Sequence record: MZ234019.1
Strand: one strand, 5' to 3'
Length of the DNA: 44,526 nt
From: Escherichia phage vB_EcoP-101117UKE2
Every line of letters begins with the position of its first letter. Position 1 is the stretch's first letter. Under the pieces are notes generated by a model, which saw only the letters and a program-made list of their open reading frames with translations, did not search any database and was not told the DNA's origin. The position numbers and the translations under genes were made by a program. Shown here piece after piece: positions 3,707 through 44,225 of the stretch.

Positions 3707-3729
3707 ATTTACCGGACACTATAGGAGAG
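3707..3729 (+). promoter_or_regulatory. phage RNAP promoter ATTTACCGGACACTATAGGAGAG
   Basis: Match to SP6-type promoter core GACACTATAG; part of the genome-wide consensus here. Confidence 0.8.
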
Positions 3730-3871
3730 CCGTCGGAGACGGGAAAGAGAAGGGAAGATAAAGGATATAAAGGAAGTAATAGGTATTAAAGGTTATATAG
3801 GTTTACCTAGGAATACCTATTACCTTCTTCCTTCCTCTTATTACCACTTAGAGGAAGGGCAGATCTAGGTT
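3730..3871. other. AT-rich non-coding element between tandem phage promoters; candidate primary replication origin or structured leader
   Basis: No ATG in about 140 bp; long imperfect inverted repeat (AGGAAGTAATAGGTAT ... ATACCTATTACCTTCTTCCT); position right after RNAP gene. Confidence 0.4.
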
Positions 3872-3887
3872 GTCTCACATGTGAGAC
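3872..3887. repeat. 16-bp perfect palindrome GTCTCACATGTGAGAC (copy 2)
   Basis: Exact copy, 5 nt upstream of next promoter. Confidence 0.9.
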
Positions 3888-3892
3888 TTCGT

Positions 3893-3915
3893 ATTTACCG
3901 GACAGTATAGATAAG
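3893..3915 (+). promoter_or_regulatory. phage RNAP promoter variant ATTTACCGGACAGTATAGATAAG
   Basis: Consensus with C to G change in the CACTATA core (CAGTATA). Confidence 0.6.
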
Positions 3916-3940
3916 ACTAACTTACTTTGGAGATTTAACT

Positions 3941-4069
3941 ATGCGTAACCTAGAAAAGATTACCCGTAAAACTAAGCGTTTCGACATGGAAGAAGGGCAG
4001 ACTAAAGGCAAGAAGCTGAATAAACCTGTCCGTGACCGTGCATCTAAACGCGCTGCGTGGGAGTTCTAA
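3941..4069 (+). CDS. small basic hypothetical protein (42 aa)
   Basis: ATG with TGGAG RBS; MRNLEKITRKTKRFDMEEGQTKGKKLNKPVRDRASKRAAWEF; below ORF-track size cutoff. Confidence 0.35.
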   Translation: MRNLEKITRKTKRFDMEEGQTKGKKLNKPVRDRASKRAAWEF

Positions 4070-4072
4070 GTT

Positions 4073-6061
4073 ATGGCTATTATTCAGAATGTACCGTGTC
4101 CTGCCTGTCAAAAGAATGGACATGATATTACTGGCAACCATCTTATGATATTTGAGGATGGCGCTGGTTACTGTAATCGTGGTCACTTCCATGATAACGG
4201 TAAGCCTTACTATCATAAGCCAGAGGGCGGCATCGAGATAACCGAATTGCCCATTACTGGCAATATCAAATACACACCTTCTCAATTCAAAGAAATGGAG
4301 AAGGAAGGGAAGATAAGCGACCCTAAGCTACGCGCCATCGCACTAGGTGGTATGCGTATGAAAGACCGTTGGGAGGTCATGAATGAGCAAGAAAGGGCAG
4401 AGCAAGAAGCAGAGTGGAAACTTGATGTTGAATGGTTCCTCACGCTTAAGCGTAAGAATCTTGTTTCCCGACACATTCGCGGCGACATTTGCGCATTGTA
4501 TGATGTACGTGTCGGACATGATGAAGAGGGTAGAGTCTCACGGCATTACTATCCACGCTTCGAGAAAGGTGAACTAGTAGGCGCTAAGTGTCGCACATTA
4601 CCTAAAGACTTTAAGTTTGGTCATTTAGGTAAACTATTTGGTATGCAAGATCTTTTCGGTATGAATACTTTGTCTCACGTGTTAGACAAGGGAAGACGAA
4701 AGGATTGCTTGCTTATTGTGGGTGGGGAACTGGATGCACTAGCAGCGCAGCAGATGCTCCTTGATTCTGCCAAGGGTACTAAGTGGGAAGGGCAGCCTTA
4801 CCATGTATGGTCTGTCAATAAGGGTGAATCTTGCCTTGAAGAAATTGTGCAGAACCGTGAGCACATCGCCCAATTCAAGAAGATTATTTGGGGCTTTGAT
4901 GGGGATGAGGTAGGACAGAAGCAGAACCAACAAGCGGCTCGCCTGTTTCCTGGCAAATCCTACATCCTTGAATACCCTTCTGGTTGCAAAGATGCCAACA
5001 AGGCATTGATGGCTGGTAAAGCCAAAGAATTTGTGGATGCTTGGTTTAATGCAAAGCCATCTGATGAAGTCTTTGGTAGCCAGATTAAATCTATCGCATC
5101 TCAAAGGGATAAGCTCAAGGCTGCACGTCCAGAACAAGGGCTGTCATGGCCTTGGCCTAAGCTAAACAAGGTAACGCTGGGTATCCGTAAGAATCAGCTT
5201 ATCATTGTAGGTGCAGGCTCTGGTGTGGGTAAGACTGAGTTCCTCCGTGAAGTAGTTAAGCATCTCATTGAAGAACACGGTGAATCTGTAGGCATCATTT
5301 CTACAGAAGACCCGATGGTTAAGGTGTCCCGTGCTTTTATCGGTAAGTGGATTGATAAGCGTATTGAGCTACCGCCAACCAATGACCCGAAAGAAGATGG
5401 ATACCGTGAGGTGTTCGACTATACCGAGGAAGAGGCTAACGCTGCCATTGACTATGTAGCTGATACAGGGAAGCTGTTTGTGGCTGACCTAGAGGGTGAC
5501 TATTCAATGGAGAAGGTAGAGCAGACCTGCCTTGAGTTTGAGGCTATGGGTATTTCTAATATCATCATTGATAACTTAACGGGGATTAAATTAGATGAGC
5601 GTGCTTTTGGTGGGAAGGTTGGTGCACTTGATGAATGCGTCAAGCGGATTGGCACTATCAAGGACAGACATGCAGTTACTATCTTCCTTGTCTCGCACCT
5701 TACTCGCCCTGCGGGAAACCGAGTCCAACACGAAGAAGGTGGCGAGGTTATCCTTTCTGACTTCCGAGGCTCAGGGGCTATCGGATTCTGGGCATCTTAC
5801 GCCTTGGGGATTGAGCGTAACACAAGAGCTGAAACGCTTGACGAAAGGACTACCACGTACATCTCATGTGTCAAAGATCGCGACCAAGGTATCTTCACCG
5901 GAACCAAGATTATGCTTAAGGGTGACATTCAAACCGGACGTTTGAGAGAACCACAGGCTAGAACAAGGTCATTTGATACAGGCGAAGCAAGGCAACAAGA
6001 AGTACCGGATTTACCGGACACTATAGAAGAGACAACCTTTGATGATGAACAGGAGTTTTGA
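4073..6061 (+). CDS. DNA primase/helicase (T7 gp4-like, 662 aa)
   Basis: N-terminal Cys4 zinc ribbon (CPACQ...CNRGHFH), helicase Walker A GAGSGVGKT, acidic C-terminus ending DDEQEF. Confidence 0.95.
   Translation: MAIIQNVPCPACQKNGHDITGNHLMIFEDGAGYCNRGHFHDNGKPYYHKPEGGIEITELPITGNIKYTPSQFKEMEKEGKISDPKLRAIALGGMRMKDRWEVMNEQERAEQEAEWKLDVEWFLTLKRKNLVSRHIRGDICALYDVRVGHDEEGRVSRHYYPRFEKGELVGAKCRTLPKDFKFGHLGKLFGMQDLFGMNTLSHVLDKGRRKDCLLIVGGELDALAAQQMLLDSAKGTKWEGQPYHVWSVNKGESCLEEIVQNREHIAQFKKIIWGFDGDEVGQKQNQQAARLFPGKSYILEYPSGCKDANKALMAGKAKEFVDAWFNAKPSDEVFGSQIKSIASQRDKLKAARPEQGLSWPWPKLNKVTLGIRKNQLIIVGAGSGVGKTEFLREVVKHLIEEHGESVGIISTEDPMVKVSRAFIGKWIDKRIELPPTNDPKEDGYREVFDYTEEEANAAIDYVADTGKLFVADLEGDYSMEKVEQTCLEFEAMGISNIIIDNLTGIKLDERAFGGKVGALDECVKRIGTIKDRHAVTIFLVSHLTRPAGNRVQHEEGGEVILSDFRGSGAIGFWASYALGIERNTRAETLDERTTTYISCVKDRDQGIFTGTKIMLKGDIQTGRLREPQARTRSFDTGEARQQEVPDLPDTIEETTFDDEQEF
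6009..6031 (+). promoter_or_regulatory. phage RNAP promoter ATTTACCGGACACTATAGAAGAG embedded in 3' end of primase gene
   Basis: Full consensus match inside coding sequence. Confidence 0.75.
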
Positions 6062-6222
6062 TGGAAATTATTAAACCAGTATTGAATATCGGTATTGACA
6101 TCCTATTCATGCTTGTGATCGCAGATTATGCTGCACGATATGGATTCAAGAAAGCTGTGAAACTTATCGTTGCATCTGGTTTTCTTATGTCAATGTTCTT
6201 TATTGTAACACGCCTTATCTAG
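6061..6222 (+). CDS. small hydrophobic protein (53 aa), probable membrane protein
   Basis: ATG overlaps primase stop (TGATG); MEIIKPVLNIGIDILFMLVIADYAARYGFKKAVKLIVASGFLMSMFFIVTRLI. Confidence 0.4.
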   Translation: MEIIKPVLNIGIDILFMLVIADYAARYGFKKAVKLIVASGFLMSMFFIVTRLI

Positions 6223-6239
6223 TGTATTTATCAGGGCTT

Positions 6240-6255
6240 GTCTCACATGTGAGAC
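6240..6255. repeat. 16-bp perfect palindrome GTCTCACATGTGAGAC (copy 3)
   Basis: Exact copy; flanking bases extend the potential stem. Confidence 0.9.
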
Positions 6256-6294
6256 AGGCTCTTATTAAGTACATTAAATAACTGGAGATTGATT

Positions 6295-6474
6295 ATGTAT
6301 AAATTAGTATTGAATGTAGGTGATTATGTTCGTAACATCAATGCAACCTCACGTAGATATCGTTGCCGTGGTACTGTGACTAATGTAAGTGAAAACAGCT
6401 ACTATGTAGAGTACAGTAATGGTATTAGACAGGCTTATCAAAAGGGAAAACAGCTACTATGTAGAGTACAGTAA
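6295..6474 (+). CDS. N-terminal fragment of hypothetical protein, truncated by frameshift from a 55-bp tandem duplication
   Basis: ATG 6295 with GGAGA RBS; ends ...ENSYYVEYSNGIRQAYQKG then out-of-frame stop. Confidence 0.5.
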   Translation: MYKLVLNVGDYVRNINATSRRYRCRGTVTNVSENSYYVEYSNGIRQAYQKGKQLLCRVQ

Positions 6475-6501
6475 TGGTATTAGACAGGCTTATCAAAAGG
6501 A
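6392..6501. repeat. perfect direct tandem duplication, 2 x 55 bp
   Basis: AAAACAGCTACTATGTAGAGTACAGTAATGGTATTAGACAGGCTTATCAAAAGG present twice back to back with period 55. Confidence 0.95.
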
Positions 6502-7072
6502 ATCAGCACATAACTACCTTGAGAAGATTGGAGAGGTAAGCAATCAATGTAAGTGCGTACACGATGAGATTTGCGATAAGTGTGCACGTCAGGCAGTTAA
6601 AGCCTTTACCTTTGCTCAACGTTATGGTTCTATGTATGGTGCTGGTCACAAGACCATTGTAGAAGCAGCTTGGAAGACATTACAGCTTGAGCGTTCAAAT
6701 GGACGACGCACCACACTTAAGAAAGAGCGCCGCAATGTAATCACTGGTAAGACTCAAAGTGAGATGGTTAAGCTGTGTGGCACGGCACTAGGTGTTACGC
6801 AGTTTAACACTCGTGCTTTAGGTAAATCCACAGGACAAGCTATGGTGAAGATTGGTGAGGCCATGATGCACCCAAATGTACCTGTGCGAATCATGGATGT
6901 TGACCATGCAATCACAGAACATGGTACAACACGGCGTGTAGTTAATAATCATTTTGCCGACACTATAGAAGATATTATCCGTAAGCAAGGATTGAAAGGT
7001 CTTCACATCTTAAATGGTGAAGAGTTGCTGTACCTTCCTATTGTTACCGAAGAAACCTACGTGAATATCTAA
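6419..7072 (+). CDS. hypothetical protein, C-terminal part of gene split by the 55-bp duplication (217-aa ORF as assembled)
   Basis: Re-encodes ENSYYVEYSNGIRQAYQK in the second repeat copy, then continues ESAHNYLEKIGEV...; intact gene about 242 aa if one copy is removed. Confidence 0.55.
   Translation: MVLDRLIKRENSYYVEYSNGIRQAYQKESAHNYLEKIGEVSNQCKCVHDEICDKCARQAVKAFTFAQRYGSMYGAGHKTIVEAAWKTLQLERSNGRRTTLKKERRNVITGKTQSEMVKLCGTALGVTQFNTRALGKSTGQAMVKIGEAMMHPNVPVRIMDVDHAITEHGTTRRVVNNHFADTIEDIIRKQGLKGLHILNGEELLYLPIVTEETYVNI
6951..6973 (+). promoter_or_regulatory. weak promoter-like site ATTTTGCCGACACTATAGAAGAT inside coding sequence
   Basis: Core CACTATAG with three upstream mismatches to consensus. 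Confidence 0.25.
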
Positions 7073-7505: not shown

Positions 7506-7521
7506 GTCTCACGTGTGAGAC
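7506..7521. repeat. 16-bp palindrome variant GTCTCACGTGTGAGAC (copy 4)
   Basis: Perfect palindrome with central CACGTG instead of CACATG. Confidence 0.9.
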
Positions 7522-10376: not shown

Positions 10377-10399
10377 GATTTACTGGACACTATAGAAGG
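10377..10399 (+). promoter_or_regulatory. phage RNAP promoter ATTTACTGGACACTATAGAAGGA
   Basis: Consensus match. Confidence 0.8.
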
Positions 10400-10464: not shown

Positions 10465-10842
10465 ATGTCTATGGTAACTACTCTGGTATTCGTAGCTCAA
10501 TACTTTCGTGGCCTGGCTAATAAGTTTAAACAGAAAGCAATCTTTGCAATTCAAGAACGTATTAATAAAATTGAAGAAGAACAAGTAGATGTAGAGGAAC
10601 ATCGTAGTTCTCAGATGATTGACCTGCATAATCGTCTGTACAAAGATCGTGATGAGATGCGTCACCGTCATGCGAAGGAAGTTGAAGACATGCTTAACCG
10701 CCATGCGGAAGAACAAGCTAAGTTGGAAACCACTTTCCATGAGGATAAACGTAGCATCGCTCTAGCACATCAAGCTGCATCGGATAGCCTGAAGAAAGAG
10801 ATTGTTATGCTGGAGATTGAGTTAGACAATCTTACCAAATAA
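10465..10842 (+). CDS. hypothetical coiled-coil protein (125 aa)
   Basis: ATG with AGGAG RBS; charged heptad-like sequence. Confidence 0.65.
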   Translation: MSMVTTLVFVAQYFRGLANKFKQKAIFAIQERINKIEEEQVDVEEHRSSQMIDLHNRLYKDRDEMRHRHAKEVEDMLNRHAEEQAKLETTFHEDKRSIALAHQAASDSLKKEIVMLEIELDNLTK

Positions 10843-10863
10843 TTACTGGACACTATAGAACAA
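10841..10863 (+). promoter_or_regulatory. phage RNAP promoter variant AATTACTGGACACTATAGAACAA
   Basis: Core match, overlaps stop of upstream gene. Confidence 0.65.
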
Positions 10864-12040: not shown

Positions 12041-12056
12041 GTCTCACGTGTGAGAC
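12041..12056. repeat. 16-bp palindrome variant GTCTCACGTGTGAGAC (copy 5)
   Basis: Immediately after upstream stop codon and 16 nt before a promoter. Confidence 0.9.
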
Positions 12057-12071: not shown

Positions 12072-12094
12072 ATTTACTGGACACTATAGAAGAG
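12072..12094 (+). promoter_or_regulatory. phage RNAP promoter ATTTACTGGACACTATAGAAGAG
   Basis: Consensus match. Confidence 0.8.
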
Positions 12095-14203: not shown

Positions 14204-15203
14204 ACTTCGTAGCCTTTATAAAGACTCCGAGGTGCTTGATGCAATCGAGCAAGCTACCGACGAGAAAGGTAATGTTAACTATAATGAGATGGCGAAGGTT
14301 CTATCTAGCCACCCTGTGGGTAAGAAGATCACCCGTCAACTTGCTCGCTACTGGCATGGTCAGTTCAAGAAGACCAAGAAGAATGGTGATTATTACCAGA
14401 CTCTTCTGCAAGAGGATAAGCGTATCAAAGAAGAGCGTAAGCTCAGGACTCCTGACCGCTACGAGGATTTGGCTATTGTACCATTGCCTGACTCGCCTCA
14501 TCGAAGTGTACTGGTGATCCCTGATACTCATGCACCTTATGAGCACCCAGATACCTTAGAATTCCTTGCAGCAGTGGCAGCACGTTATCGACCAGACACA
14601 GTGGTACATCTTGGAGATGAGGCAGATAAACATGCCCTGTCATTCCATGATTCGGATCCAAATTTGGACAGTGCTGGCATGGAGTTAGAGAAGGCTCGTG
14701 TCTTCATGCACAAGTTGCACAAGATGTTCCCTGTGATGCGCCTGTGTCATTCTAACCATGGCTCTATGCACTTCCGTAAGGCAAGCGCCAAGGGTATTCC
14801 AGTACAATATCTGCGTACCTATCGTGAAGTCTTCTTTCCGAATGGAGGTGGCGACCAGTGGGACTGGCAGCATACCCACGTTCTTGAGTTGCCGAATGGT
14901 GAACAGGTGGCATTCAAGCACCAACCTGCTGGCTCTGTCCTAGCAGATGCAGCACACGAGCGTATGAACCTTGTGTGTGGTCACTTGCATGGTAAGATGT
15001 CGGTAGAGTATGCACGTAATACACATGAACAGTATTGGGCTGTGCAGGGTGGCTGTCTGATTGATGAGTCCTCTCGTGCATTTGCCTATGGTCGTGAGTC
15101 TAAATACAAGCCAGCATTAGGTTGTGTGGTTATTCTGGAAGGTGTGCCTCATATTGTCCCGATGCAGACCAATAGTGACAATCGCTGGATTGGTAAGATT
15201 TAG
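14196..15203 (+). CDS. calcineurin-like metallophosphoesterase (about 335 aa)
   Basis: Motifs IPDTHAP, HLGDEAD, CHSNHG, CGHLHG; GTG start 14196 with AGGAGG RBS inside endo VII 3' end (track start 14085). Confidence 0.75.
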   Translation: MAKLRSLYKDSEVLDAIEQATDEKGNVNYNEMAKVLSSHPVGKKITRQLARYWHGQFKKTKKNGDYYQTLLQEDKRIKEERKLRTPDRYEDLAIVPLPDSPHRSVLVIPDTHAPYEHPDTLEFLAAVAARYRPDTVVHLGDEADKHALSFHDSDPNLDSAGMELEKARVFMHKLHKMFPVMRLCHSNHGSMHFRKASAKGIPVQYLRTYREVFFPNGGGDQWDWQHTHVLELPNGEQVAFKHQPAGSVLADAAHERMNLVCGHLHGKMSVEYARNTHEQYWAVQGGCLIDESSRAFAYGRESKYKPALGCVVILEGVPHIVPMQTNSDNRWIGKI

Positions 15204-15220
15204 TTGACACTATAGAACAA
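15198..15220 (+). promoter_or_regulatory. phage RNAP promoter variant ATTTAGTTGACACTATAGAACAA
   Basis: Closer to classical SP6 consensus ATTTAGGTGACACTATAG; overlaps upstream stop. Confidence 0.65.
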
Positions 15221-20339: not shown

Positions 20340-20362
20340 ATTTACTGGACACTATAGAAGGG
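20340..20362 (+). promoter_or_regulatory. phage RNAP promoter ATTTACTGGACACTATAGAAGGG upstream of capsid gene
   Basis: Consensus match. Confidence 0.85.
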
Positions 20363-25538: not shown

Positions 25539-28481
25539 ATGGCAATTGAACGTCAAGCTGTACAAGGACTAGAAAGAGTACAGTCAAGGGGCGCGCCAAC
25601 ACCTATGTCTTTCACACCACGACAAGTGAGTATCTCAGGGGGCGCGGATGCCTCCGGTAGTAGATTTTTGGAAGACTTAGTAAACGCTGCAAGTAGTGTG
25701 GCTGATGTCACTACTGCTATCCTTAATCAGCAAGTAGAAGACGATAAGGTTCGCCAGATGGATAGGGCTTTGTCTGGCATGATGCCTTCTGAGGATGCTA
25801 CGGTAGGTGGTGCTCGTGCGCATATGCTGGTTAGTTTACAAAATGATGTAATCGCACAGACAACTGCGCTACAAGTAGAAGCACAGCGATTTCAAGGTAG
25901 TGACGAGGATTGGGAAAACTATGTAGTCCAATCTCGTAATGAGGTACAAAATAGGTTATGGCAAAGTTATCCAGAGCTTCGTGGTGACAAAGATTCTATG
26001 AGACTTGTCACTAACGCGTTCATGGAGCAGCAACCTAGAATTACTGCAACTAGAGCAGAGGCTAAACTTCGTCAAGAAGAAGAAGCACGAATGCAATCTA
26101 TGCAGTCTCGTATTATCATGGCTACACGGGACGTAGCGCCAGATGCCACTGGTGCAGCACTCATCCAGTTACAAAAAGAAGCACTGGCGATGGGTCTTAG
26201 TAAACCTGAGTTTGATCAGATGGTTGCTAAGATTGCATCTGACAGAGCGGCAGTAGGAGACGATAGTCTTATTCAGGGAACCAAAGCACTGGTGGATGAT
26301 AAGGGTGTCTCTTTGTATGACCGTGTTGGTGCTTTGCAAACTGGAGAGATTCAAGCTAACAGAGCTTGGGCTGCGCAGAATCAGGTTGCCCTCTTTGAGA
26401 AGAAGGATGCAGCTATAAAGGCATTCGATGCAGGGCAACTTACTCGTGAAGAGTTACTTCAGGTGATGCAGAATCACAATGAATTGACTGGTGGTACTGC
26501 TTGGTCTGATAGCGAGATCAAGGCTATCTTCGATAGGCAAGCTAAGGCTAATGCAGAGAAAGCAAAGCTCGAAGATCTTATTGCACGAGGTGAATCTGGG
26601 TCGCCTTTAGGTTTACAGGATATTAGTAAGGATGACAGAAAATCATATGCTGAAGCCTTAGTTAGTACCTACACTAAGTTGGCAGAAGATGAAATTGCCC
26701 GTACTGGTGCAACTGGAGAACAGGCTGAAGCTATTCGCGGTAGGTATGAGCAGATGCGTTATCTTAAGTTAGGGCAGCAACTTATTGAAGACCCAATCAT
26801 TAAGGAAAGATATTCGTCGCTTATGCAATTATCCTCTGCCAACCTTAAAGATATGAATGTTGAGCCTGAAGCATTACAGACCATCATGCGAGCGCGGGAC
26901 TCTATTCCAGAGGATGCACGTCGTGCTGTCATGGGAGACAAGGAGTATGCCTTTGTAGAGAACTACGACCTAGCAACTCGCATGGGGTATAACGCAGGTC
27001 AAGCTATTGAGTTTGCACAGAATGCCTCTCGTGGAGAGAAACTACAAGGTTCTGTACTTAAAGAACTGAATGATGATGTAGATGGAGTTGTAAGTGATGT
27101 GGCAGGAGGTAGTTGGCTTACTCATGGCGATAATATGAGTGAGATGGGTCGTGACATTATGATGGAGGAGGCAAGTACAATTGCGAGAGCAATGAAGGTT
27201 GCAGGTCATAATAATGACACGATTAAACGTCATCTTAAATCCTATTTGACGAGCCAGTATACACAGTTATCAGAGGGCTTCTTCACCCAAGGTGTTCTGG
27301 TGAAAGGTGATGTACGAACATTAGGTGACACTATAGGAGTAAACCAGAATGACCTTCCTATGGCGCTACGTCAATATATGGATAACAACAAGAAAGCACT
27401 TCTTGATGCATCAGGTGGCTTAGAAGAGGGTGATTTGTATTTTGATGTAGATGCGCAGCGGGGACTCTTTACCATACGTGCAGGGTCTGGTCGTGTACCT
27501 GTTACGCAGGCAATGCCTTTGTCTGAAATCAAAGGGCAGTCCTTGCTTAAGCAAAGATATGATGCAGAGGTTAAAGCCCGTGATGAGGGGCGTAAGAATT
27601 TTGAAGCACAGCAAATGAGGATGTGGGGCGCAGGTGGCTACCAAGCACAACCGCCTGCAAAGACTACAGCCAAAACTGTAGGCTCCCGTGGGATTGCTGA
27701 CTTCTTAATGTCACCTGCCTTTGCATCAGGCGAGAATCTACCAGCAAACTTTGAGTTTGGATATAAGAGGAATAATATGGACTTCTACAATTATGTAGCC
27801 AAGATGGAGAATAATGCCAATGTGGGCTTTGACCGAGTAGCTGGTGTTTATACACCATACAAAGATGCACATGGTCAATCTGTCGGGTACGGTCACTTCC
27901 TTACTACTGAAGAGAAGAAGAACGGATACATTATGATTGGTACAGAGAAAGTGCCATTCACTCCGGGACAATCTCAATTAACACCAGAACGAGCCATGCG
28001 CCTTCTACAGCAAGACTTGAAGAGTCATGTGCCAAACACTTCAGGGTGGGCTGTTCCATTCGAAGAGATGCACCCAGGTGTTCAGCGTGGCCTTATGGAC
28101 TTGTCCTATAATTTAGGCAAAGGAGGTATCCAGAATGCACCTAAAGCCTATGCTGCGTTTAAGGCTGGCAAGTTTACTGATGGATTTATTGAGATGTTAT
28201 CTACTGCATCTACTGAAGGTAAGCGTAGTACTGGGTTGTTGGTTCGTAGGGCAGAAGCATACAACCTTGCACAGAGTGGAGGTGCTATTCCTAAGATTAG
28301 TGAAGTAGAGACACGAGCCGATGGGTCTATGTATGTTAAGTTTGCAGGACAGATGTCAGAGGCTTTCGTAAATAAATCAATCTACAATCAGATTGGTAAG
28401 GATGGATGGCTGCAAGTGTACCCTCCAAAACAAGGTGTACTTGCACCTAACACCAAGATTGGTAGAATCAAACTAAGCTAG
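25539..28481 (+). CDS. internal virion protein with C-terminal GH24 lysozyme-like domain (980 aa)
   Basis: C-terminal VYTPYKDAHGQSVGYGH...LTPERAMRLLQQDL...YNLGKGG matches T4/P22 lysozyme signature. Confidence 0.85.
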   Translation: MAIERQAVQGLERVQSRGAPTPMSFTPRQVSISGGADASGSRFLEDLVNAASSVADVTTAILNQQVEDDKVRQMDRALSGMMPSEDATVGGARAHMLVSLQNDVIAQTTALQVEAQRFQGSDEDWENYVVQSRNEVQNRLWQSYPELRGDKDSMRLVTNAFMEQQPRITATRAEAKLRQEEEARMQSMQSRIIMATRDVAPDATGAALIQLQKEALAMGLSKPEFDQMVAKIASDRAAVGDDSLIQGTKALVDDKGVSLYDRVGALQTGEIQANRAWAAQNQVALFEKKDAAIKAFDAGQLTREELLQVMQNHNELTGGTAWSDSEIKAIFDRQAKANAEKAKLEDLIARGESGSPLGLQDISKDDRKSYAEALVSTYTKLAEDEIARTGATGEQAEAIRGRYEQMRYLKLGQQLIEDPIIKERYSSLMQLSSANLKDMNVEPEALQTIMRARDSIPEDARRAVMGDKEYAFVENYDLATRMGYNAGQAIEFAQNASRGEKLQGSVLKELNDDVDGVVSDVAGGSWLTHGDNMSEMGRDIMMEEASTIARAMKVAGHNNDTIKRHLKSYLTSQYTQLSEGFFTQGVLVKGDVRTLGDTIGVNQNDLPMALRQYMDNNKKALLDASGGLEEGDLYFDVDAQRGLFTIRAGSGRVPVTQAMPLSEIKGQSLLKQRYDAEVKARDEGRKNFEAQQMRMWGAGGYQAQPPAKTTAKTVGSRGIADFLMSPAFASGENLPANFEFGYKRNNMDFYNYVAKMENNANVGFDRVAGVYTPYKDAHGQSVGYGHFLTTEEKKNGYIMIGTEKVPFTPGQSQLTPERAMRLLQQDLKSHVPNTSGWAVPFEEMHPGVQRGLMDLSYNLGKGGIQNAPKAYAAFKAGKFTDGFIEMLSTASTEGKRSTGLLVRRAEAYNLAQSGGAIPKISEVETRADGSMYVKFAGQMSEAFVNKSIYNQIGKDGWLQVYPPKQGVLAPNTKIGRIKLS
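27320..27342 (+). promoter_or_regulatory. promoter-like site CATTAGGTGACACTATAGGAGTA inside internal virion protein gene
   Basis: AGGTGACACTATAG matches classical SP6 consensus better than this genome's own consensus. Confidence 0.3.
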
Positions 28482-28498
28482 TGGTATACTCAAGGTTT

Positions 28499-28514
28499 GT
28501 CTCACATGTGAGAC
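28499..28514. repeat. 16-bp perfect palindrome GTCTCACATGTGAGAC (copy 6)
   Basis: Exact copy in the junction between internal virion protein genes. Confidence 0.9.
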
Positions 28515-28548
28515 ATGCCTTTATGAATGACACTGACTAGGAGGTAAC

Positions 28549-31500
28549 ATGGTTGATAGTATTAACCAAAACTGGGTGGCGGTGACTCAACGCAAGTTAC
28601 CGCCTACCTTCTCTCAAATTGCTGAAGCTGAGCGTAAGGCTGAAGCCCAGAGAGCTAATGATAAAGTGTTTCAAACAGCAATAGAAAGTGAGTGGGCTTT
28701 ATATGGCGGACAACGTGCCTATGAACGCCACACTACAGAGTTTGCTGAACAAGAAGGCTATGAAGTGCCTGAGTCAACTAAGGATGAGTTATCCAAGTTG
28801 TATGGGTATGAAATAGCGCAAGACATAGTTAAGAATGTAAAGTCTCCAGAAGAGTTGCAATTCCGTATGTCTAATGCTGCTGCTGATAAAGACAGAGCAG
28901 ACATCTTAGCACGTAATGGTTTCACGGGTTTCAGCGCGCAGATTGCTGCTGGCATCCTTGACCCTGTAGGTTGGGCTGCATCCTTAGTGGCTGCGCCTGT
29001 AGCGGGTGCTGTCAAAGTAGGTAGGCTAGGTAGGATTATCAAGACGGCTGCCTTATCAGGTGCTGAAAATGCTGCATTAGAAGCTATACTTGCACAAGGT
29101 GATTACCAGCGAGGGGTTGATGATGTACTGGCTGCTGCCGGATTTGGTATGATTATGGGCGGCACTATTGGTGCTGCAACCAGAGAGCGCATAGCCAGTG
29201 CTGGTTCTCGTACAGCGGCAGAACGAGCAGATGCTGTAGTTGATGACTTGGACACTGTAGTAAAAGGTGCTGATGAATTTGACTCGTCTGCGGCTCGTGC
29301 TGTACGTGAAGCTATGGAATATGACGCGTATATGGCAGCGCGTAATTACGAACCACTTCGTGCAAGAGAGGTAGATGCAGACATGGCGATTCTGTCTCAC
29401 ACAGATAATTTGAAAGCCAATGCATCGGTAAGGATGAGTGCTAGTGAGAAAGGGCAACTGAAGAAGCAGATACGTCAGCTTGAAGCAGAAGCAGCAACAC
29501 TTAAAGGGAAGAAGATAGACACTGTAGCGGAAGCTGCGGCTGCTAAGGGTGCACCTAAATCTGCTGCTGACAGATTAGATTTGGATGTTCAGAAGAAAGC
29601 ATTAGCACGTAGATTTGATGAACCACTGGCAGACTTACAAGCGCGTCTTGATGAGTTGAATGCTAAATTGTCTCGTGTAAACAATGTAGGCAAAGCCAAG
29701 GAAGAGCTTAAGAGATTCTCATCGCTATCTCGTGAAGAGCAAATAAAGGAGTTAGGTCTAGACGCACCAGTGCGCAAGGTAGAGATGACCCGTGCCGTGC
29801 GAGATGCAATTGACGCAATCCGTGCCGAGCGTAAGAAGACGCCTACCGAAATACATGCTGAACAAGTCGCAGAAGATGCAATTAAGCAAAGGGCAGACGA
29901 CTCTGTTGGTGCTAAACGTGTTGAAGGTTCAGAGATTGCAGGTGAACAGTTTGACCTATCTAAAAACATGGAAGAACTTATGGATGACTTGGCACGAGAA
30001 GCATACCAGTCAGAGGTGCGGCCTATTAATCTTAAGGGTTTAGGTTCAGTGTCTTCTGTGATTCTTAACTCAGAGAATCCTGTGTTCCGAGGCCTAGGTC
30101 TTCGTCTGCTTGAAAATGCTCAAGGTGGTGCATATCAAGGTAAGACAGCTTCTATCTTATCAGATGTGTATGGCAACCTTATTCGTCATGCAGAACGTAA
30201 CAGATACAATGATGGCTTCTCTCAGTTCATCAAAGATAATAACCTACGTGCGGTAGATTATCTTAACCCTGCAACGACAAGGGATTTCAATAATCAGATT
30301 TATACAGCAATTGTTCGTGGCATACCAGAAGATACACCTCGTGGTGTTAAACTGGCAGCCGAAGGTATTGCAGATAAGCTCAAGAAAGCACTGGAGATTC
30401 GTAAGCAAGCAGGTGAGCGAGGCTTCGAGGATGTGCAATCTGCTAAAGATTATATTCCCGTTATCTACGATGGTATCAAGATCACAGAGGCAGTTAACAA
30501 GTTAGGTAGTAGTGAAGCTGTCATTCACTTGCTATCTAAAGGGTATCAGACAGGCAAGTACAAACTTGGCAAGAAAGCTGCTGATGCACTAGCCAAAGTT
30601 CAGTATATTCGCGCATCTGACTCCACCCTCTCTAGTCGTGTTGCATTCGATAGAGTAGTATCCCAGCAGCAGCAGGCTCAATTGATTGAGGATCTGAAGA
30701 AAGCAGGAGTACCAGACCATATCATTGATAATTTCATTGAAGGTACGGAATTAGCAGAAATGGCTGAATCGGTATCCAATCGAGCTAAAGCTAGCATGGG
30801 TATTAATACGCAAGCCGAATATGGCGGTTTGAAGGTGCAGGATTTGCTTAATACAAACGTAGGCGAGCTAGCTGAGAACTACGGCAAAGAGGCAGCAGGC
30901 GGTGCTGCATTAGCTGCCATGGGTTTCCCCACTCGCCAGTCTGTGCTGAATGCGATAGATGCCGCAGAACGCGCAGGTCGTAATATGGCGGGGTCAAATG
31001 CTAAGGCAATCAAACAGCTTAGAGCTGAGGCAGAAATGCTCAGAGATGCCGTTAAGCTCATTTACGGCAACACTATTGACGCCGACCCTAACTCTGGAAT
31101 TGTCAGAGGCACTCGACGTGTCCGTGAGATTACAGGCTTGTTACGATTGGGTCAAATGGGCTTCGCTCAGATACCAGAACTGGCACGTGCAATCTCTAAG
31201 ATGGGATTAGGTACTGTGCTGAAGTCCATACCTGCCACGAAGTTCTTACGTTCAAGGGCGGCTCGTAAGGGAGGAACAGCTCAAGGTGAATTACTTGAAC
31301 CTGAACTGCGAGAAATGGAGGAACTCTTAGGCTATATCGGGGAAGATAACTGGCTTACAGGGTGGAACGTCCGTCATGATGAGTTCGGAGAAACTGCTGA
31401 TAACCTAGGTAAGCTGTCTGCTATTATTGATAACGGATTAGCTATGGGTAGTAGAATCAACACAATACTCTCTGGATTTAAAGCAGTACAAGGTGGTTCA

Positions 31501-32352
31501 GAGAAAATTGTAGCTCGCTCTATCAATAAGAGATTAAAGCAGCACTTGATGGGTGAGAGACAATTACCTAAAGCAGACCTTGAAGAAGTAGGCCTAAGTG
31601 AAGATGTCATGAAAAGACTTAAGCGTCACTTTGATGACAACCCTCTGTACGCTGAGTACAATGGAGAAAAAGTTCGTATGCTGAACTTTGATGCTATGGA
31701 GCCAGACCTGAGAGAGACAGTGGGTGTTGCTGTGCGAAGAATGTCAGGCCGTCTTATTCAACGTAACTTCATTGGCGATGAAGGTATCTGGATGAATAAA
31801 TGGTGGGGCAAGGCATTAACGCAGTTTAAGTCATTCTCTATTGTCTCTATTGAGAAACAGCTAATCCATGATTTACGAGGTGATAAGATTCAGGCTGCAC
31901 AGATACTTGCATGGTCTACTTTACTAGGTTATGCATCTTATGCACTACAGATGCAGATGCAAGCGATTGGTAGGGAGGATAGAGACAAGTTCTTGAGGGA
32001 TAAGTTTGACACACAGAACATCGCTATGGGTGTCTTTAATAAACTTCCACAAGTTGCAGGCTTTGGTTTAGCTGGTGATGCTTTGGCAACCTTTGGCCTA
32101 ATGCCAGACTCCATGATGCAAGCACCGGGACGCATGGGTTTCCGTCAGCAAGGCTTTGGGGATTTGGTAGCAGGTGCTGGTGTAATAAGTGATACAGTTA
32201 ATTTGTCACAAGCACTGGTTAAGTATGCCAGTGGAGACGATGATGTCTCTACGAGGCAGTTGGTAGACAAGGTTCGTCGCCTTGTTCCTTTGGCAAATAC
32301 TATTGGTGTGGGTCAGATGACTAAAGCCAGTGTAGATTTATTGGAGGATTGA
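28549..32352 (+). CDS. large internal virion (core) protein (gp16-like, 1267 aa)
   Basis: Size and synteny; AGGAGG RBS. Confidence 0.8.
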   Translation: MVDSINQNWVAVTQRKLPPTFSQIAEAERKAEAQRANDKVFQTAIESEWALYGGQRAYERHTTEFAEQEGYEVPESTKDELSKLYGYEIAQDIVKNVKSPEELQFRMSNAAADKDRADILARNGFTGFSAQIAAGILDPVGWAASLVAAPVAGAVKVGRLGRIIKTAALSGAENAALEAILAQGDYQRGVDDVLAAAGFGMIMGGTIGAATRERIASAGSRTAAERADAVVDDLDTVVKGADEFDSSAARAVREAMEYDAYMAARNYEPLRAREVDADMAILSHTDNLKANASVRMSASEKGQLKKQIRQLEAEAATLKGKKIDTVAEAAAAKGAPKSAADRLDLDVQKKALARRFDEPLADLQARLDELNAKLSRVNNVGKAKEELKRFSSLSREEQIKELGLDAPVRKVEMTRAVRDAIDAIRAERKKTPTEIHAEQVAEDAIKQRADDSVGAKRVEGSEIAGEQFDLSKNMEELMDDLAREAYQSEVRPINLKGLGSVSSVILNSENPVFRGLGLRLLENAQGGAYQGKTASILSDVYGNLIRHAERNRYNDGFSQFIKDNNLRAVDYLNPATTRDFNNQIYTAIVRGIPEDTPRGVKLAAEGIADKLKKALEIRKQAGERGFEDVQSAKDYIPVIYDGIKITEAVNKLGSSEAVIHLLSKGYQTGKYKLGKKAADALAKVQYIRASDSTLSSRVAFDRVVSQQQQAQLIEDLKKAGVPDHIIDNFIEGTELAEMAESVSNRAKASMGINTQAEYGGLKVQDLLNTNVGELAENYGKEAAGGAALAAMGFPTRQSVLNAIDAAERAGRNMAGSNAKAIKQLRAEAEMLRDAVKLIYGNTIDADPNSGIVRGTRRVREITGLLRLGQMGFAQIPELARAISKMGLGTVLKSIPATKFLRSRAARKGGTAQGELLEPELREMEELLGYIGEDNWLTGWNVRHDEFGETADNLGKLSAIIDNGLAMGSRINTILSGFKAVQGGSEKIVARSINKRLKQHLMGERQLPKADLEEVGLSEDVMKRLKRHFDDNPLYAEYNGEKVRMLNFDAMEPDLRETVGVAVRRMSGRLIQRNFIGDEGIWMNKWWGKALTQFKSFSIVSIEKQLIHDLRGDKIQAAQILAWSTLLGYASYALQMQMQAIGREDRDKFLRDKFDTQNIAMGVFNKLPQVAGFGLAGDALATFGLMPDSMMQAPGRMGFRQQGFGDLVAGAGVISDTVNLSQALVKYASGDDDVSTRQLVDKVRRLVPLANTIGVGQMTKASVDLLED

Positions 32353-35435: not shown

Positions 35436-35629
35436 TGATAAACTCCGAACTGGTAGATAATGGTGTGAAGCTGGCGCCACCTGCATTAGTCTCAGGTGGG
35501 TACTTCCTCGGTATCAGTTGGGACAATTGGGTACTGATAGCAACATTCATTTATACAGTGTTGCAGATTGGCGATTGGTTCTATACTAAATATACAATAT
35601 GGAGGAATAAGCATGAGCGTGCACAATAA
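35435..35629 (+). CDS. class II holin (T7 gp17.5-like, 64 aa)
   Basis: LGISWDNWVLIATFIYTVLQIG matches T7 gp17.5 FGLSLNEWFYVAAIAYTVVQIG; same position between fiber and terminase. Confidence 0.8.
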   Translation: MINSELVDNGVKLAPPALVSGGYFLGISWDNWVLIATFIYTVLQIGDWFYTKYTIWRNKHERAQ

Positions 35630-35912
35630 ACATGCAGCCACAGAGGATGAAGTAGGCATCCTTCATGGCGCTATTACGAAGATGTTTAATAAGAAAGCAC
35701 AGGCTATACTGGACACTATAGAAGAAGACCCTGATTCTGCTATGCACTTAGTGTCAGGTAAGGATATTGGAGCCATGTGTAAGTGGGTTTTAGATAATGG
35801 CATTACTGCAACCCCTGCTGCACAGCAGGAAGAATCTAAGTTGTCTAAGCGTCTCAAGGCTATCCGAGAGGCGTCCAGTGGTAAGATCATTCAGTTTACT
35901 AAGGAGGATTAA
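35613..35912 (+). CDS. terminase small subunit (putative)
   Basis: Synteny with T7 gene 18; ATG 35613 with GGAGG RBS (track start 35568 overlaps holin). Confidence 0.6.
   Translation: MSVHNKHAATEDEVGILHGAITKMFNKKAQAILDTIEEDPDSAMHLVSGKDIGAMCKWVLDNGITATPAAQQEESKLSKRLKAIREASSGKIIQFTKED
35704..35726 (+). promoter_or_regulatory. promoter-like site CTATACTGGACACTATAGAAGAA inside small terminase gene
   Basis: 15 of 17 upstream positions plus initiating region match consensus. Confidence 0.35.
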
Positions 35913-37808: not shown

Positions 37809-37831
37809 ATTTACTGGACACTATAGGAGGA
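37809..37831 (+). promoter_or_regulatory. phage RNAP promoter ATTTACTGGACACTATAGGAGGA with AT-rich structured leader
   Basis: Consensus match; followed by about 130-nt AT-rich leader sharing motifs with 3730-3871. Confidence 0.8.
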
Positions 37832-40161: not shown

Positions 40162-40184
40162 ATTTACTGGACACTATAGAAGGA
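40162..40184 (+). promoter_or_regulatory. phage RNAP promoter ATTTACTGGACACTATAGAAGGA upstream of tailspike
   Basis: Consensus match. Confidence 0.85.
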
Positions 40185-43142: not shown

Positions 43143-43366
43143 TGTATCAACATGAGGTATTCTTTGAATCAGCTAGCGAAGCTATTCGCTTCCGTGATGA
43201 TATGATGCAAGCTGGTGTAGGCGTTGATGTGTATCACTATTTGATAGATTACGACACTGAATATCACCGAGTTACCTTAGTATCTGAGTATGACAACCAA
43301 GTCATTACTGAGTATCTAGGTAGTGAAGATTATGATTACGATGAAGTAATCACGACAAATCTCTAA
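43142..43366 (+). CDS. early, strongly acidic protein (74 aa); candidate DNA-mimic or anti-defence protein
   Basis: GAGGG RBS; Asp/Glu/Tyr-rich composition; leading-end position next to ocr. Confidence 0.6.
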   Translation: MYQHEVFFESASEAIRFRDDMMQAGVGVDVYHYLIDYDTEYHRVTLVSEYDNQVITEYLGSEDYDYDEVITTNL

Positions 43367-43374
43367 ATTAACTA

Positions 43375-43404
43375 TTGACAGCCACGGCATACAAGGTTAC
43401 ATTA
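43375..43404 (+). promoter_or_regulatory. candidate host sigma70 promoter
   Basis: -35 TTGACA at 43375, 17-bp spacer, -10 TACATT. Confidence 0.4.
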
Positions 43405-43480
43405 AGCACATAGCCGATAGGCAACGCTCTTTAACAATCTGGTTTGTGTCTTGATAGGCTAACTAACTAAGGTAATTATT

Positions 43481-43591
43481 ATGAAAGGTTTAATTTGTGT
43501 AGAACGTATGGTCAATGGTAAACTTGAAATATTACCACTGGAAAACCAATCTAGCTTCAAAGAGTGGTATGGCTGTTTCTCACTGATTTAA
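43481..43591 (+). CDS. small hypothetical protein (36 aa)
   Basis: ATG preceded by AACTAACTAAGG; weak support. Confidence 0.25.
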   Translation: MKGLICVERMVNGKLEILPLENQSSFKEWYGCFSLI

Positions 43592-43742
43592 GGTAAAGGC
43601 TGGCACTAGTCAGCCTATCAAGGCGCAAACCAAGCTCTTTAACAATTTGGATGGTAGCTTCTTAGTCTGGATAGGTTAAACCTAGGAGATTCTCTTGAGT
43701 CTCCTATAATGTAACCTAACTAACTAAATGAGGATTAATAAC

Positions 43743-44096
43743 ATGGCTATGTCTAATATGACTTACTCTCAGGTTTACAACACCGCTCATGCTGCATTAG
43801 TTGAACGTATCTGGAATGATGCTATTGATTGTATCGATAACGCACATGATGCAATCCATGAGGTAGCGGACAGTGCTGTACCAATCTATTATGCTGACAT
43901 CTTCTCAGTGATGGCGAGTGAAGGTATTGATCACTTCTTCGAAGACTCCGGCCTGATGCCAGATACTAAGGATGTAACGGTCGTACTACAAGCCCGTATC
44001 TATGAACAACTCACCATTGATTTATGGGAACGTGTTCAAGATATGATTGTTGCGTACACCACTTACGCTGATTATTCAGAAGAAGAGGAAGAATAA
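43743..44096 (+). CDS. ocr: Ocr-like anti-restriction DNA-mimic protein (117 aa)
   Basis: MAMSNMTY start and [52 protein letters not shown] match recalled T7 gp0.3; acidic C-terminus; GAGG RBS. Confidence 0.9.
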
Positions 44097-44098
44097 GG

Positions 44099-44212
44099 AT
44101 GGAAAAGCAATATAACTTTATCTTTTCAGACGGTGTGACCCTGAAGTGTTCCCTGCGTTTCGCGCAGATTCGCGAGGAAGTGCTAGGAACTACATACAAA
44201 CTATTTAGCTGA
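44099..44212 (+). CDS. small hypothetical protein (37 aa)
   Basis: ATG just after ocr stop; overlaps downstream promoter; weak. Confidence 0.25.
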   Translation: MEKQYNFIFSDGVTLKCSLRFAQIREEVLGTTYKLFS

Positions 44213-44225
44213 CACTATAAGAGAG
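44203..44225 (+). promoter_or_regulatory. phage RNAP promoter variant ATTTAGCTGACACTATAAGAGAG
   Basis: SP6-consensus-like upstream half; altered initiation region TATAAGAG. Confidence 0.55.

Follow-up and report, generated by a model that had tools for sequence, protein, structure and literature searches.

The repeated sites in the genome of Escherichia phage vB_EcoP-101117UKE2 (MZ234019.1) are, at a probability of about 0.75, the ordinary and already published phage RNA polymerase (RNAP) promoters of the genus Vectrevirus. The window, meaning the whole 44,526-nt stretch that was analysed, is the complete, circularly permuted genome of a K1-5/K1E-like coliphage of this genus. Its promoter pattern is genus-wide and previously known: Godel et al. 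(2026; PMC13029058) list the same 13 sites, SP6-form sites included, for a relative, No. 2049.

A search of the whole window with ATTTACYGGACACTATAG at up to three mismatches returned 13 matches where shuffled sequence would give 0.04, and every match is on the + strand. Exact matches start at 3707, 6009, 10378, 12072, 20340, 37809 and 40162, those at 3893 and 10841 carry one mismatch, those at 15198 and 35704 two, and those at 6951 and 44203 three. Scanning with the SP6 consensus added 27319-27336 (CATTAGGTGACACTATAG, two mismatches), which brings the total to 14 sites on the + strand. With +1 set at the final G of the consensus, the window consensus departs from that of SP6 at exactly -12 (C versus G), -11 (T/C versus G) and -10 (G versus T). 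A sequence-only reading of this DNA was therefore right that the repeated sites are real and that they depart from the SP6 form at -12 to -10; the sites at 3893 and 6951 are missing individually from it. The sites between genes or at gene ends are as follows.

3707..3724, + strand: promoter ATTTACCGGACACTATAG, +1 at 3724, leading member of a tandem pair ahead of gp8 and primase/helicase
3893..3910, + strand: putative second tandem site, degenerate, ATTTACCGGACAGTATAG, with core CAGTATAG (G at -5)
10378..10395, + strand: consensus promoter between the DNA polymerase gene and gp15 (10465), with a 5' hairpin next in the transcript
10841..10858, + strand: promoter AATTACTGGACACTATAG, which overlaps the stop codon of gp15 (gp15 ends at 10842), upstream of gp16 (11005)
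12072..12089, + strand: consensus promoter upstream of gp18 (12144)
15198..15215, + strand: "intermediate" promoter ATTTAGTTGACACTATAG, upstream of a nucleotide-kinase-like gene (15257)
20340..20357, + strand: consensus promoter ahead of the major capsid gene (20413), with a 5' hairpin next in the transcript
37809..37826, + strand: consensus promoter immediately after the terL stop codon, initial transcribed sequence GGAGGA
40162..40179, + strand: consensus promoter ahead of the tailspike gene (40202/40262-41785), with a 5' hairpin next in the transcript
44203..44220, + strand: "intermediate" site ATTTAGCTGACACTATAA, +1 base A, upstream of gp5-like (44286), gp6-like (1-924) and the RNAP gene

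This layout would correspond to that of SP6 and T7-like phages, in which promoters lie ahead of gene blocks and often within the 3' end of the gene before them. One-to-one syntenic sites are present in K1-5, K1E, R4596, RoP3a, ACG-C91, VEc3, NTNC80A and seven further Vectreviruses, while SP6-clade phages carry syntenic counterparts for all sites except the one in terS and the degenerate one at 3893, whose counterpart was sought within Vectrevirus only. The 3707 promoter, preceded by the RNAP terminator hairpin (3623-3646), has syntenic counterparts in SP6 (ATTTAAGGGACACTATAG) and in all the Vectrevirus genomes compared. Its putative partner at 3893, 31 nt upstream of gp8 (3941-4069), is kept in R4596, RoP3a, K1-5, K1E, ACG-C91 and VEc3.

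The two sites described as leaning toward the SP6 form do so, with one mismatch to the SP6 consensus at 15198 and two at 44203. Both lie over stop codons: the gp22 stop TAG (15201-15203) fills promoter positions -14 to -12 at 15198, and the gp4-like stop TGA (44210-44212) fills -10 to -8 at 44203. The 15198 sequence is unchanged in 14 of 15 Vectreviruses; at the equivalent position SP6 has TAA (ATTTAAGTG), and NTNC80A and No. 2049 have ATTTAGGTG. The "intermediate" forms thus arise largely because they overlap stop codons or codons of upstream genes. Such dual coding would fix bases within -14 to -8 at 15198, 44203, 6009, 6951 and 35704.

Alternatively, the variants could be deliberate strength or temporal classes, comparable to the class II and class III promoters of T7, with atypical sites weak or special-purpose and, for example, C at -11 marking promoters near the RNAP gene and T the late ones. 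The choice of C or T at -11 is indeed position-specific and conserved across the genus, with ACCGG always at 3707, 3893 and 6009 and ACTGG at the capsid and tailspike promoters, and it may tune promoter strength. Additionally, all Vectrevirus and SP6-clade genomes that were compared, hence both genera, have a syntenic counterpart of the 44203 site ahead of the RNAP operon, again with A at +1 and TGA at -10 to -8, and the bases at +2 and +5 shift in vitro output about 5-fold (PMC13029058). However, the post-terL promoter alternates between ACCGG and ACTGG from genome to genome, and coding overlap together with recombination explains much of the variation more simply, which leaves deliberate classes unlikely.

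The enzyme expected to read these promoters, and the residue that bears on their -11 base, are located as follows.

988..3615, + strand: single-subunit RNA polymerase gene, 875 aa
3226..3228, + strand: Ser747 codon TCC, specificity-loop residue aligned with N748 of T7 RNAP

The RNAP region is 100% identical to those of MZ234020 and R4596. Its protein is 85.6% identical to that of SP6, in keeping with the high similarity claimed for it earlier, 97.3-98.5% to those of K1E, K1-5 and NTNC80A, 98.2% to that of No. 2049 and 35% to that of T7, whose RNAP is its top match among solved structures. The specificity loop was aligned without gaps by MAFFT and HMMER, and T7 N748, the residue that reads -10/-11 in that enzyme, corresponds to Ser747 here and to Arg in SP6. 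This residue is Ser in 15/15 Vectrevirus genomes and Arg in 7/7 SP6-clade genomes. The -11 base is G at all 73 sites of the seven Arg-type genomes, while the 15 Ser-type genomes have T or C at 148 of 156 sites, G at 7 and A at 1; in this genome, 13 of 14 sites have a pyrimidine. Since -12 and -10 vary within both genera, giving a genus consensus of (T/G)ATTTACTGGACACTATAGAAG, pyrimidine versus G at -11 is the single diagnostic change that separates them. As for outgroups, Era103 has Ser with C at -11 and PP1 has Lys with G. The Ser/Arg association draws on few independent lineages, and KPN7, with Arg, T at -11 and G at -10, is an exception that does not fit; a causal role of Ser747 in the -11 preference is suggested by the alignment and covariation.

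These observations could be taken to mean that the RNAP has a specificity distinct and insulated from that of SP6, as the sequence-only reading proposed, with SP6-like and intermediate sites weak or unused. The Ser-for-Arg swap falls exactly on the T7 N748 equivalent and covaries almost perfectly with the -11 base over 22 genomes, and the absence of -11 pyrimidine promoters from Arg-type genomes (0/73) fits strict SP6-type enzymes. Published measurements on RNAP No. 2049, which also has Ser at this position, point the other way: the signal in vitro reached 3.5% with the SP6 consensus, about 2% with its own, 0.18% with an unrelated one and 10.6% with a GGAGGA start (PMC13029058). The last value belongs to 'promoter 6', the strongest in vitro variant, whose sequence is that of the 37809 site (PMC13029058). 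Equal activity on the two consensus forms had been named as one of two observations that would speak against the sequence-only reading, and this 98.2%-identical enzyme is at least as active on that of SP6. The assay gave low activities, and its two test promoters also differ at +6 (PMC13029058). Furthermore, about 16 residues separate the RNAP studied here from that of No. 2049, among them Gly versus Ser at the T7 Q758 equivalent and two in the AT-rich-loop region.

Natural genomes point in the same direction, because complete SP6-form promoters occupy regular positions in Vectreviruses with the Ser747 loop: NTNC80A has three, among them the counterpart of 10841 (TAATTAGGTGACACTATAG), and in NIC06P3 the counterpart of the 40162 tailspike promoter is of this form. 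From the No. 2049 activity and these relatives it follows that the preference is shifted but overlapping, and an insulated specificity is improbable; the separation from SP6 lacks support in the form proposed earlier, and Ser747/Arg is a plausible protein correlate of the promoter difference. Some preference must nonetheless exist, as a near-uniform pyrimidine at -11 would be unexpected if G were wholly neutral. The Ser enzyme would accordingly use a pyrimidine at -11 while still accepting G, an overlap that, by analogy with No. 2049, probably holds at least for this RNAP on the promoters of SP6.

The remaining sites, together with the module that contains one of them, are embedded in coding sequence.

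6009..6026, + strand: consensus site, candidate promoter, 3' end of primase/helicase (4073-6061), frame L-P-D-T-I-E
6951..6968, + strand: promoter-like site ATTTTGCCGACACTATAG inside gp10 (6419-7072), frame H-F-A-D-T-I-E
27319..27336, + strand: SP6-form site CATTAGGTGACACTATAG (G at -11), candidate promoter inside gp35, frame T-L-G-D-T-I-G
35704..35721, + strand: near-consensus site CTATACTGGACACTATAG, candidate promoter inside terS (35613-35912), frame A-I-L-D-T-I-E
25539..32352, + strand: gp35-gp36 internal virion protein module, an SP6-type allele and mosaic segment by nucleotide identity

Sites within the primase and small terminase genes had been recognised before, as had the SP6-like site in the internal virion protein gene, which starts at 27319 and not, 1 nt off, at 27320. 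Those in primase/helicase, gp10 and terS share one frame, D-T-I-E/G, throughout the genus; an embedded site is confined to GAC-ACT-ATA-G, since either of the other frames would bring in TGA or TAG. The 6009 site lies within the last 53 nt of primase/helicase, 35 nt upstream of gp9.5 (6061-6222); its SP6 counterpart is AATTAGGTGACACTATAG in the same codons (L-G-D-T-I-E), and that of K1-5, which lacks gp9.5, has C changed to T at -7. All Vectreviruses examined have the 6951 site, which precedes gp10.5 (7083) by 115 nt, and the SP6 homologue of gp10 has TATTACGTGACACTATAG in the same frame. The 35704 site, 92 nt into terS and 191 nt upstream of terL (35912), is found in 15/15 Vectreviruses and is absent in SP6 and UAB78 (A-I-L-A-A-V-E) and in IME184 (A-I-L-D-A-I-E).

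The 27319 site lies 1780 nt into gp35 (25539-28481; 2943 nt), an internal virion/lysozyme-domain gene. Its codons recur at the homologous position in SP6, UAB78, BP12B, Kenya-K11 and SE29, and the site is broken in IME184 and cp4 by an ACT to GCT change that alters the amino acid. The gp35-gp36 module shares 70-81% nucleotide identity with SP6 across most of its length and 88-97% with NTNC80A, while against K1-5/K1E little or no nucleotide similarity was found, just short edge fragments; K1-5 and K1E lack the site because they carry a different gp35/36 allele. The SP6 form at 27319 would thus be an ancestral feature of the SP6-type module, absent from K1-5/K1E. Similarly, the SP6-form promoters of NTNC80A adjoin segments nearer to SP6-clade alleles.

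The embedded sites, 27319 above all and likewise 6951, 35704 and 3893, are rather unlikely to be non-functional relics or by-products of encoding conserved peptides. They are only modestly more conserved than nearby coding sequence and no outliers from it (ranks 0.11-0.36 among same-length windows), so extra selection for promoter function is not demonstrated; except for 6951, they lack the 5' hairpin found after most intergenic promoters, and neither the loss of 27319 from IME184 and cp4 nor its absence from K1-5 and K1E has an obvious consequence. Yet matches of 15-18 nt greatly exceed what chance would give, and SP6 and this phage agree at the synonymous positions of GGT-GAC-ACT-ATA even though the gene is only about 77% identical. 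The terS site, moreover, occurs only where three amino-acid differences from SP6 give an exact native-flavour promoter, and it does not vary across the 15 Vectreviruses; the next gene follows 6009 and 6951 at the distances given above. In vivo, each of the embedded sites may act as a promoter.

The closest known system is the Vectrevirus set (K1-5, K1E, No. 2049; PMC13029058), which has the same consensus TATTTACTGGACACTATAGAAG at the same 13 syntenic positions. Among the shared sites are the SP6-form one of the gp35-type gene, that of terS with (G)C(A/T)ATACTGG, CATTTTGCCGACACTATAG within gp10 and ATTTAGCTGACACTATAA ahead of the RNAP operon. Differences are confined to details: where this phage has AGTTG in the kinase promoter, No. 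2049 and NTNC80A have AGGTG, the published No. 2049 list lacks the degenerate 3893 site, and K1-5 and K1E lack the internal gp35 site. SP6 (Zindervirus), with promoters ATTTAGGTGACACTATAG, is identical to this phage in the -17 to -13 and -9 to +1 blocks, has 12 syntenic positions, the same two sites over the same stop codons and the same gene 35 codons; unlike this phage, its clade has invariant G at -11, its RNAP has Arg instead of Ser, and terS has no site.

The T7/T3 switch, reportedly described by Raskin et al. and Cheetham et al., lies at RNAP residue 748 (N748 versus D748), which reads -10/-11, and is similar in that one aligned loop residue differs between close RNAPs whose promoters differ at -11/-10. 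That switch leads to near-exclusive specificities, whereas a Ser-type enzyme still uses the consensus of the other clade in vitro. Promoter sequences of T7 are unrelated beyond the CACTATAG core, and the putative second member of the tandem pair here has G at -5. The likeness to T7 lies in organisation: a compact genome with genes on a single strand, promoters overlapping the 3' ends of preceding genes, and a tandem pair directly after the RNAP gene, as with T7 phi1.1A and phi1.1B, annotated at 5848 and 5923 just past gene 1.

Scanning the window with the consensus of the sequence-only reading, at up to three mismatches, returned 13 matches, every one of them on the + strand, where a shuffle control predicts 0.04, while the SP6 pattern returned 12 against 0.03 expected and contributed one extra site, 27319-27336. 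A chance origin of the promoter-like sites is ruled out by the controls for both patterns. The 14 sites, named by the first base of 18 nt with +1 as the final base, are as follows.

Promoter-like sites of the window; for sites embedded in genes, the codon covering -12 to -10 and its residue are given
3707, 3893, 10378, 10841, 12072, 15198, 20340, 37809, 40162 and 44203, + strand: intergenic, or overlapping the last codons of the preceding gene
6009, + strand: final 53 nt of the primase/helicase gene; CCG, Pro
6951, + strand: within gp10; GCC, Ala
27319, + strand: deep within the gp35-type internal virion gene; GGT, Gly
35704, + strand: within the small terminase gene (terS); CTG, Leu

The core CACTATAG, ending at the +1 G, is present in 12 of the 14 sites, the exceptions being 3893 (CAGTATAG) and 44203 (CACTATAA), and the consensus reads ATTTAC(T/C)GGACACTATAG, with a pyrimidine (T/C) at -11 in 13 of 14. 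The coding strand carries every site; 13 sit 31-217 nt 5' of the next gene, and 27319 lies 1213 nt upstream of it. A recurrent conserved sequence of 18-23 bp, a core, co-orientation and an RNAP gene in the same genome are among the features of single-subunit RNAP promoters, and these four are found here; the RNAP gene (988-3615) encodes a protein with 85.6% identity to SP6 RNAP, with T7 RNAP as its top solved-structure match. The repeated promoters claimed from the sequence are borne out, as are the gene contexts proposed for 6009 (primase/helicase), 27319 (internal virion gene) and 35704 (terS) and, for the majority form, the differences from SP6 at -12, -11 and -10, counted with the last G as +1. 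Two minus-strand near-matches, 3114 and 43704, were set aside for mismatches at critical core positions. Both ATTTTCATTGCCACTATAGGGG at 3114, within the RNAP gene, and AGTTAGGTTACATTATAG at 43704-43721, in the early region, are probably inactive, and the antisense near-match at 3114 is conserved because the RNAP gene itself is conserved.

Positions 988-3800 are 100% identical to vB_EcoP-101118B1 (MZ234020.1), vB_EcoP-G3A1 and vB_EcoP_R4596, all of the genus Vectrevirus (K1-5/K1E group; Autographiviridae: Molineuxvirinae). The record is circularly permuted relative to the canonical map, its first gene being gp6-like, just 5' of the RNAP gene, and its early region lying at the right end, at roughly 42-44.5 kb. 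Equivalent sites occupy equivalent map positions in K1-5, K1E, R4596, RoP3a, ACG-C91, VEc3, NTNC80A and seven further Vectrevirus genomes; synteny with K1-5 and K1E is one-to-one, the exceptions being the gp35 internal site, absent in both, and the helicase site, mutated in K1-5. Twelve of the window's positions are also occupied in SP6, among them those in gene 35, in the gp10 homologue and at the 3' end of primase/helicase.

Godel et al. 2026 (PMC13029058) listed 13 putative promoters in a metagenomic Vectrevirus whose enzyme, RNAP No. 2049, is 98.2% identical to the window RNAP. Their list, which includes TATTTAGCTGACACTATAA, CATTTTGCCGACACTATAG, a site of SP6 form preceding the nucleotide kinase gene, ACATTAGGTGACACTATAG within the gp35-type gene and GCAATACTGGACACTATAG in terS, agrees with the window site for site. 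Additionally, the C3P3-G1 paper describes K1E RNAP and the K1E promoter functioning as a pair; PMC11475235 and the phage-genome papers PMC4640515, PMC4837284 and PMC4099482 added nothing specific. The GenBank records consulted (K1-5, K1E, two of SP6, R4596 and others) annotate coding sequences, a few terminators and terminal repeats, with no phage promoters. The sites belong to an established family, the Vectrevirus promoters, to which those of SP6 are sister, and the finding is real, yet ordinary and already documented. The gain is mostly limited to annotation, for which transcription signals can be transferred confidently from K1-5, K1E, SP6 and the 2026 in-vitro study. The present analysis adds position -11 as the sole diagnostic base, Ser747 of the RNAP as its candidate determinant, the overlaps with stop codons and the modular origin of the internal gp35 site.

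Position -11 was compared at sites with A at -13 and an exact GACACTATA core in 22 genomes. G occupies -11 at 73/73 sites of seven SP6-clade genomes (SP6, UAB_Phi78, BP12B, Kenya-K11, SE29, IME184 and cp4); across 15 Vectrevirus genomes, T or C is found at 148/156 sites, G at 7 and A at 1. Positions -12 and -10 are variable inside both groups: SP6 has all four bases at -12 and either T or G at -10, and the window has C or G at the first of these positions and G, T or C at the second. Sites 15198 (AGTTG), 44203 (AGCTG) and 6951 (TGCCG) all retain the Vectrevirus pyrimidine at -11, and G at -11 occurs in the window at 27319 only. Apart from 27319, the promoter set lacks the SP6-family mark of G at -11, and the second mark, Arg at the T7-N748 equivalent, is replaced by Ser747 (codon TCC, 3226-3228), in a specificity loop that aligns to T7 RNAP gap-free with both MAFFT and HMMER. 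Work on T7 and T3 showed that N748 of T7 RNAP reads -10/-11. The equivalents of T7 R746, R756 and Q758 are alike in the window and SP6 enzymes (R, K and S). Record Y00105.1, labelled 'Lederbergvirus Sf6', aligns over the full SP6 RNAP gene at essentially 100%, and its label appears wrong.

Residue at the T7-N748 equivalent and base at -11
Ser: T/C in Vectrevirus (15 genomes), C in Erwinia phage Era103
Arg: G in the SP6 clade (7 genomes), T in Klebsiella phage KPN7, where -10 is G
Lys: G in Pectobacterium phage PP1

Since the pairing of residue and -11 base mostly holds in the outgroups, with KPN7 as the exception, a shifted -11 preference of the window RNAP can reasonably be inferred, from few independent lineages. 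The idea that the loop residue specifies the base by a simple code was rejected, as KPN7, with Arg and T at -11, does not fit it. The ten KPN7 sites read TAATA(G/C)TGGCGAGTATAG, apart from one beginning TAATTG, and divide about evenly between G and C at -12, making this phage a second case in the subfamily of two -12 flavours inside one genome. Papers citing the SP6 saturation mutagenesis of Shin 2000 yielded no data on -11.

The sequence-only reading had further proposed an RNAP specificity distinct from that of SP6, and half of this stands: the -11 base and Ser747 do differ from SP6, and some in-vivo preference at -11 is indicated because the pyrimidine there is near-uniform. The other half runs against the behaviour of RNAP No. 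2049, which likewise has Ser at the T7-N748 equivalent. Normalised to T7, its signal was 3.5% with the SP6 consensus and about 2% with its own; the own consensus bearing a GGAGGA start reached 10.6%, and an unrelated consensus gave 0.18%. These in-vitro activities are low, and the SP6 and own templates differ also at +6 (PMC13029058). Equal activity on SP6 and own sites, the outcome expected if the specificities were not distinct, is therefore what this 98.2%-identical enzyme displays. The GGAGGA-start promoter has the sequence of the window promoter at 37809. About 16 residues separate the two RNAPs; two of them fall in the AT-rich-loop region, and another is the T7-Q758 equivalent, where RNAP No. 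2049 has Gly and the window enzyme Ser. Genomes with Ser-type RNAPs, those of Vectrevirus, also carry full SP6-form promoters at ordinary promoter positions: NTNC80A has three, adjoining segments nearer to SP6-clade alleles than to other Vectreviruses, and NIC06P3 has one before the tailspike gene. The specificities of Vectrevirus and SP6 RNAPs overlap, the in-vitro basis being RNAP No. 2049 rather than the window RNAP.

Promoter compatibility between the genera might also be one-way, with Ser747 RNAPs reading both pyrimidine(-11) and G(-11) and Arg-type RNAPs, those of the SP6 clade, needing G(-11), although we regard this as rather unlikely; the counts of SP6-form sites in Ser-type genomes (7/156) and pyrimidine(-11) sites in Arg-type genomes (0/73) are suggestive, not significant. 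If true, promoter-bearing modules could pass from SP6-like phages to Vectreviruses and not in reverse, and one loop residue would set the direction of mosaic exchange. Anyone engineering orthogonal pairs of RNAP and promoter should not presume that the systems of Vectrevirus and SP6 are orthogonal; the Ser/Arg residue and the -11 base offer the obvious handle. SP6-form promoters in Vectrevirus genomes serve as markers of segments exchanged with SP6-like phages.

Sites 15198 and 44203, described earlier as intermediate toward the SP6 form, do lean toward SP6 at -12/-10 and keep the Vectrevirus pyrimidine at -11. Coding overlap accounts for part of their deviations. At 15198, G at -12 is explained by the gp22 stop codon TAG, which covers -14 to -12, and the SP6 equivalent has TAA at that place; at 44203, T at -10 is fixed by the stop codon TGA of a gp4-like gene covering -10 to -8, and the SP6 equivalent shows the same TGA/promoter arrangement. 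Beyond the overlap remain T at -10 in 15198 and, in 44203, G at -12 and A at +1. The sequence of 44203-44220 is CACTATAAGAG, and its A at +1 and overlapping TGA are kept in every Vectrevirus and SP6-clade genome examined. This site precedes gp5, gp6 and the RNAP gene and, if active, would provide positive feedback of the RNAP on its own gene.

All four embedded sites share the frame GAC-ACT-ATA-G (D-T-I-E/G), in which -12 to -10 form one codon; the remaining two frames give stops, TAG at -2 to +1 and, in the SP6 form, TGA at -10 to -8. Most of gp35-gp36 (25539-32352) has nucleotide identity of 70-81% to SP6 and 88-97% to NTNC80A, and resembles K1-5/K1E only in short edge fragments; K1-5 and K1E have a different gp35/gp36 allele without an internal site there. 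The sequence TAGGTGACACTATAGG lies at the same codons (T/A-L-G-D-T-I-G) in SP6, UAB_Phi78, BP12B, Kenya-K11 and SE29, and in the Klebsiella phages IME184 and cp4 a change of ACT to GCT breaks the site at -6. Being shared at the same codons across SP6-type alleles, the gp35 site is an old feature of the allele, and the view of 27319 as a new SP6-like promoter in Vectrevirus was rejected accordingly. The window genome is mosaic, with SP6-type alleles at gp35/gp36 and segments 32501-35000 and 40501-41500 also noted. The tail fibre gene (32349-35435, 1028 aa) is 93-100% common to R4596, a tail spike gene of equal length and position is annotated in RoP3a (annotation only), and part of the tailspike gene, at ~40.5-41.5 kb, had no nucleotide match in any of five genomes compared.

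Evidence for function of the embedded sites includes matches 15-18 nt long and the placement of 6009 and 6951 at 35 and 115 nt 5' of the next gene. The terS site is invariant in 15/15 Vectreviruses and is confined to genes whose product departs from the SP6 protein at three residues (A-I-L-D-T-I-E vs A-I-L-A-A-V-E), and the synonymous positions of GGT-GAC-ACT-ATA in gp35 are identical between SP6 and the window. The corresponding K1-5 helicase 3'-end site (about 8320-8337; window 6009-6026) reads ATTTACCGGATACTATAG, with C to T at -7, and gp9.5 is absent; promoter and gp9.5 appear to have been lost together. On the other side, or neutral, diversity at -13 to +6, compared with that of equally long windows in the respective gene, falls at quantiles of 0.11-0.36, ranks too modest to be used as proof of function; embedded sites other than 6951 lack the stable 5' hairpin typical after intergenic promoters; and 27319 is dispensable in several relatives. 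Judged from sequence, 6009 is a likely promoter, function is plausible for 6951 and 35704, and it is uncertain for 27319 and 3893.

Genus-wide, the three sites closest to the RNAP gene have C at -11 and later ones have T, a pattern that would be comparable to the class II and class III promoters of T7 if it also reflected strength or timing. A stable transcript stem-loop (-9 to -20 kcal/mol, z about -1.6 to -4.5 over +1 to +45, with z = -1.6 at 10841) follows within 3-15 nt of +1 after 10378, 10841, 15198, 20340, 40162 and 44203; it is weaker at 3707 and absent after the embedded 6009, 27319 and 35704 and the degenerate 3893. AT-rich runs of TAGG/ATAGG/TATAGG repeats lie 3' of 3724, 10395 and 37826, such as ggataatataggattacctaggttatataggtatacct after 37809. 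A 14-nt palindrome, TCTCAC(A/G)(T/C)GTGAGA, occurs six times (3690-3703, 3873-3886, 6241-6254, 7507-7520, 12042-12055 and 28500-28513), always intergenic and just 3' of stop codons, three copies being immediately 5' of promoters 3707, 3893 and 12072. It is kept at syntenic positions in seven other Vectreviruses scanned, with no match in SP6, UAB_Phi78 or IME184. At 6241, 7507 and 28500 it forms a 12-13-bp hairpin followed by a U-rich tract (-14.6 to -19.2 kcal/mol), and the element may serve as a terminator, as a protein operator or as a site of RNase III-type processing.

The palindrome and promoter unit is tandemly duplicated 3' of the RNAP gene (3689-3724 and 3872-3910), with a purine-/AT-rich spacer, and in the second copy -5 is G, giving CAGTATAG, the consensus core of the Era103 and KPN7 promoters. 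This tandem layout resembles the phi1.1A/phi1.1B origin region of T7, a phage that also has promoters inside the ends of preceding genes and a tandem pair after its RNAP gene.
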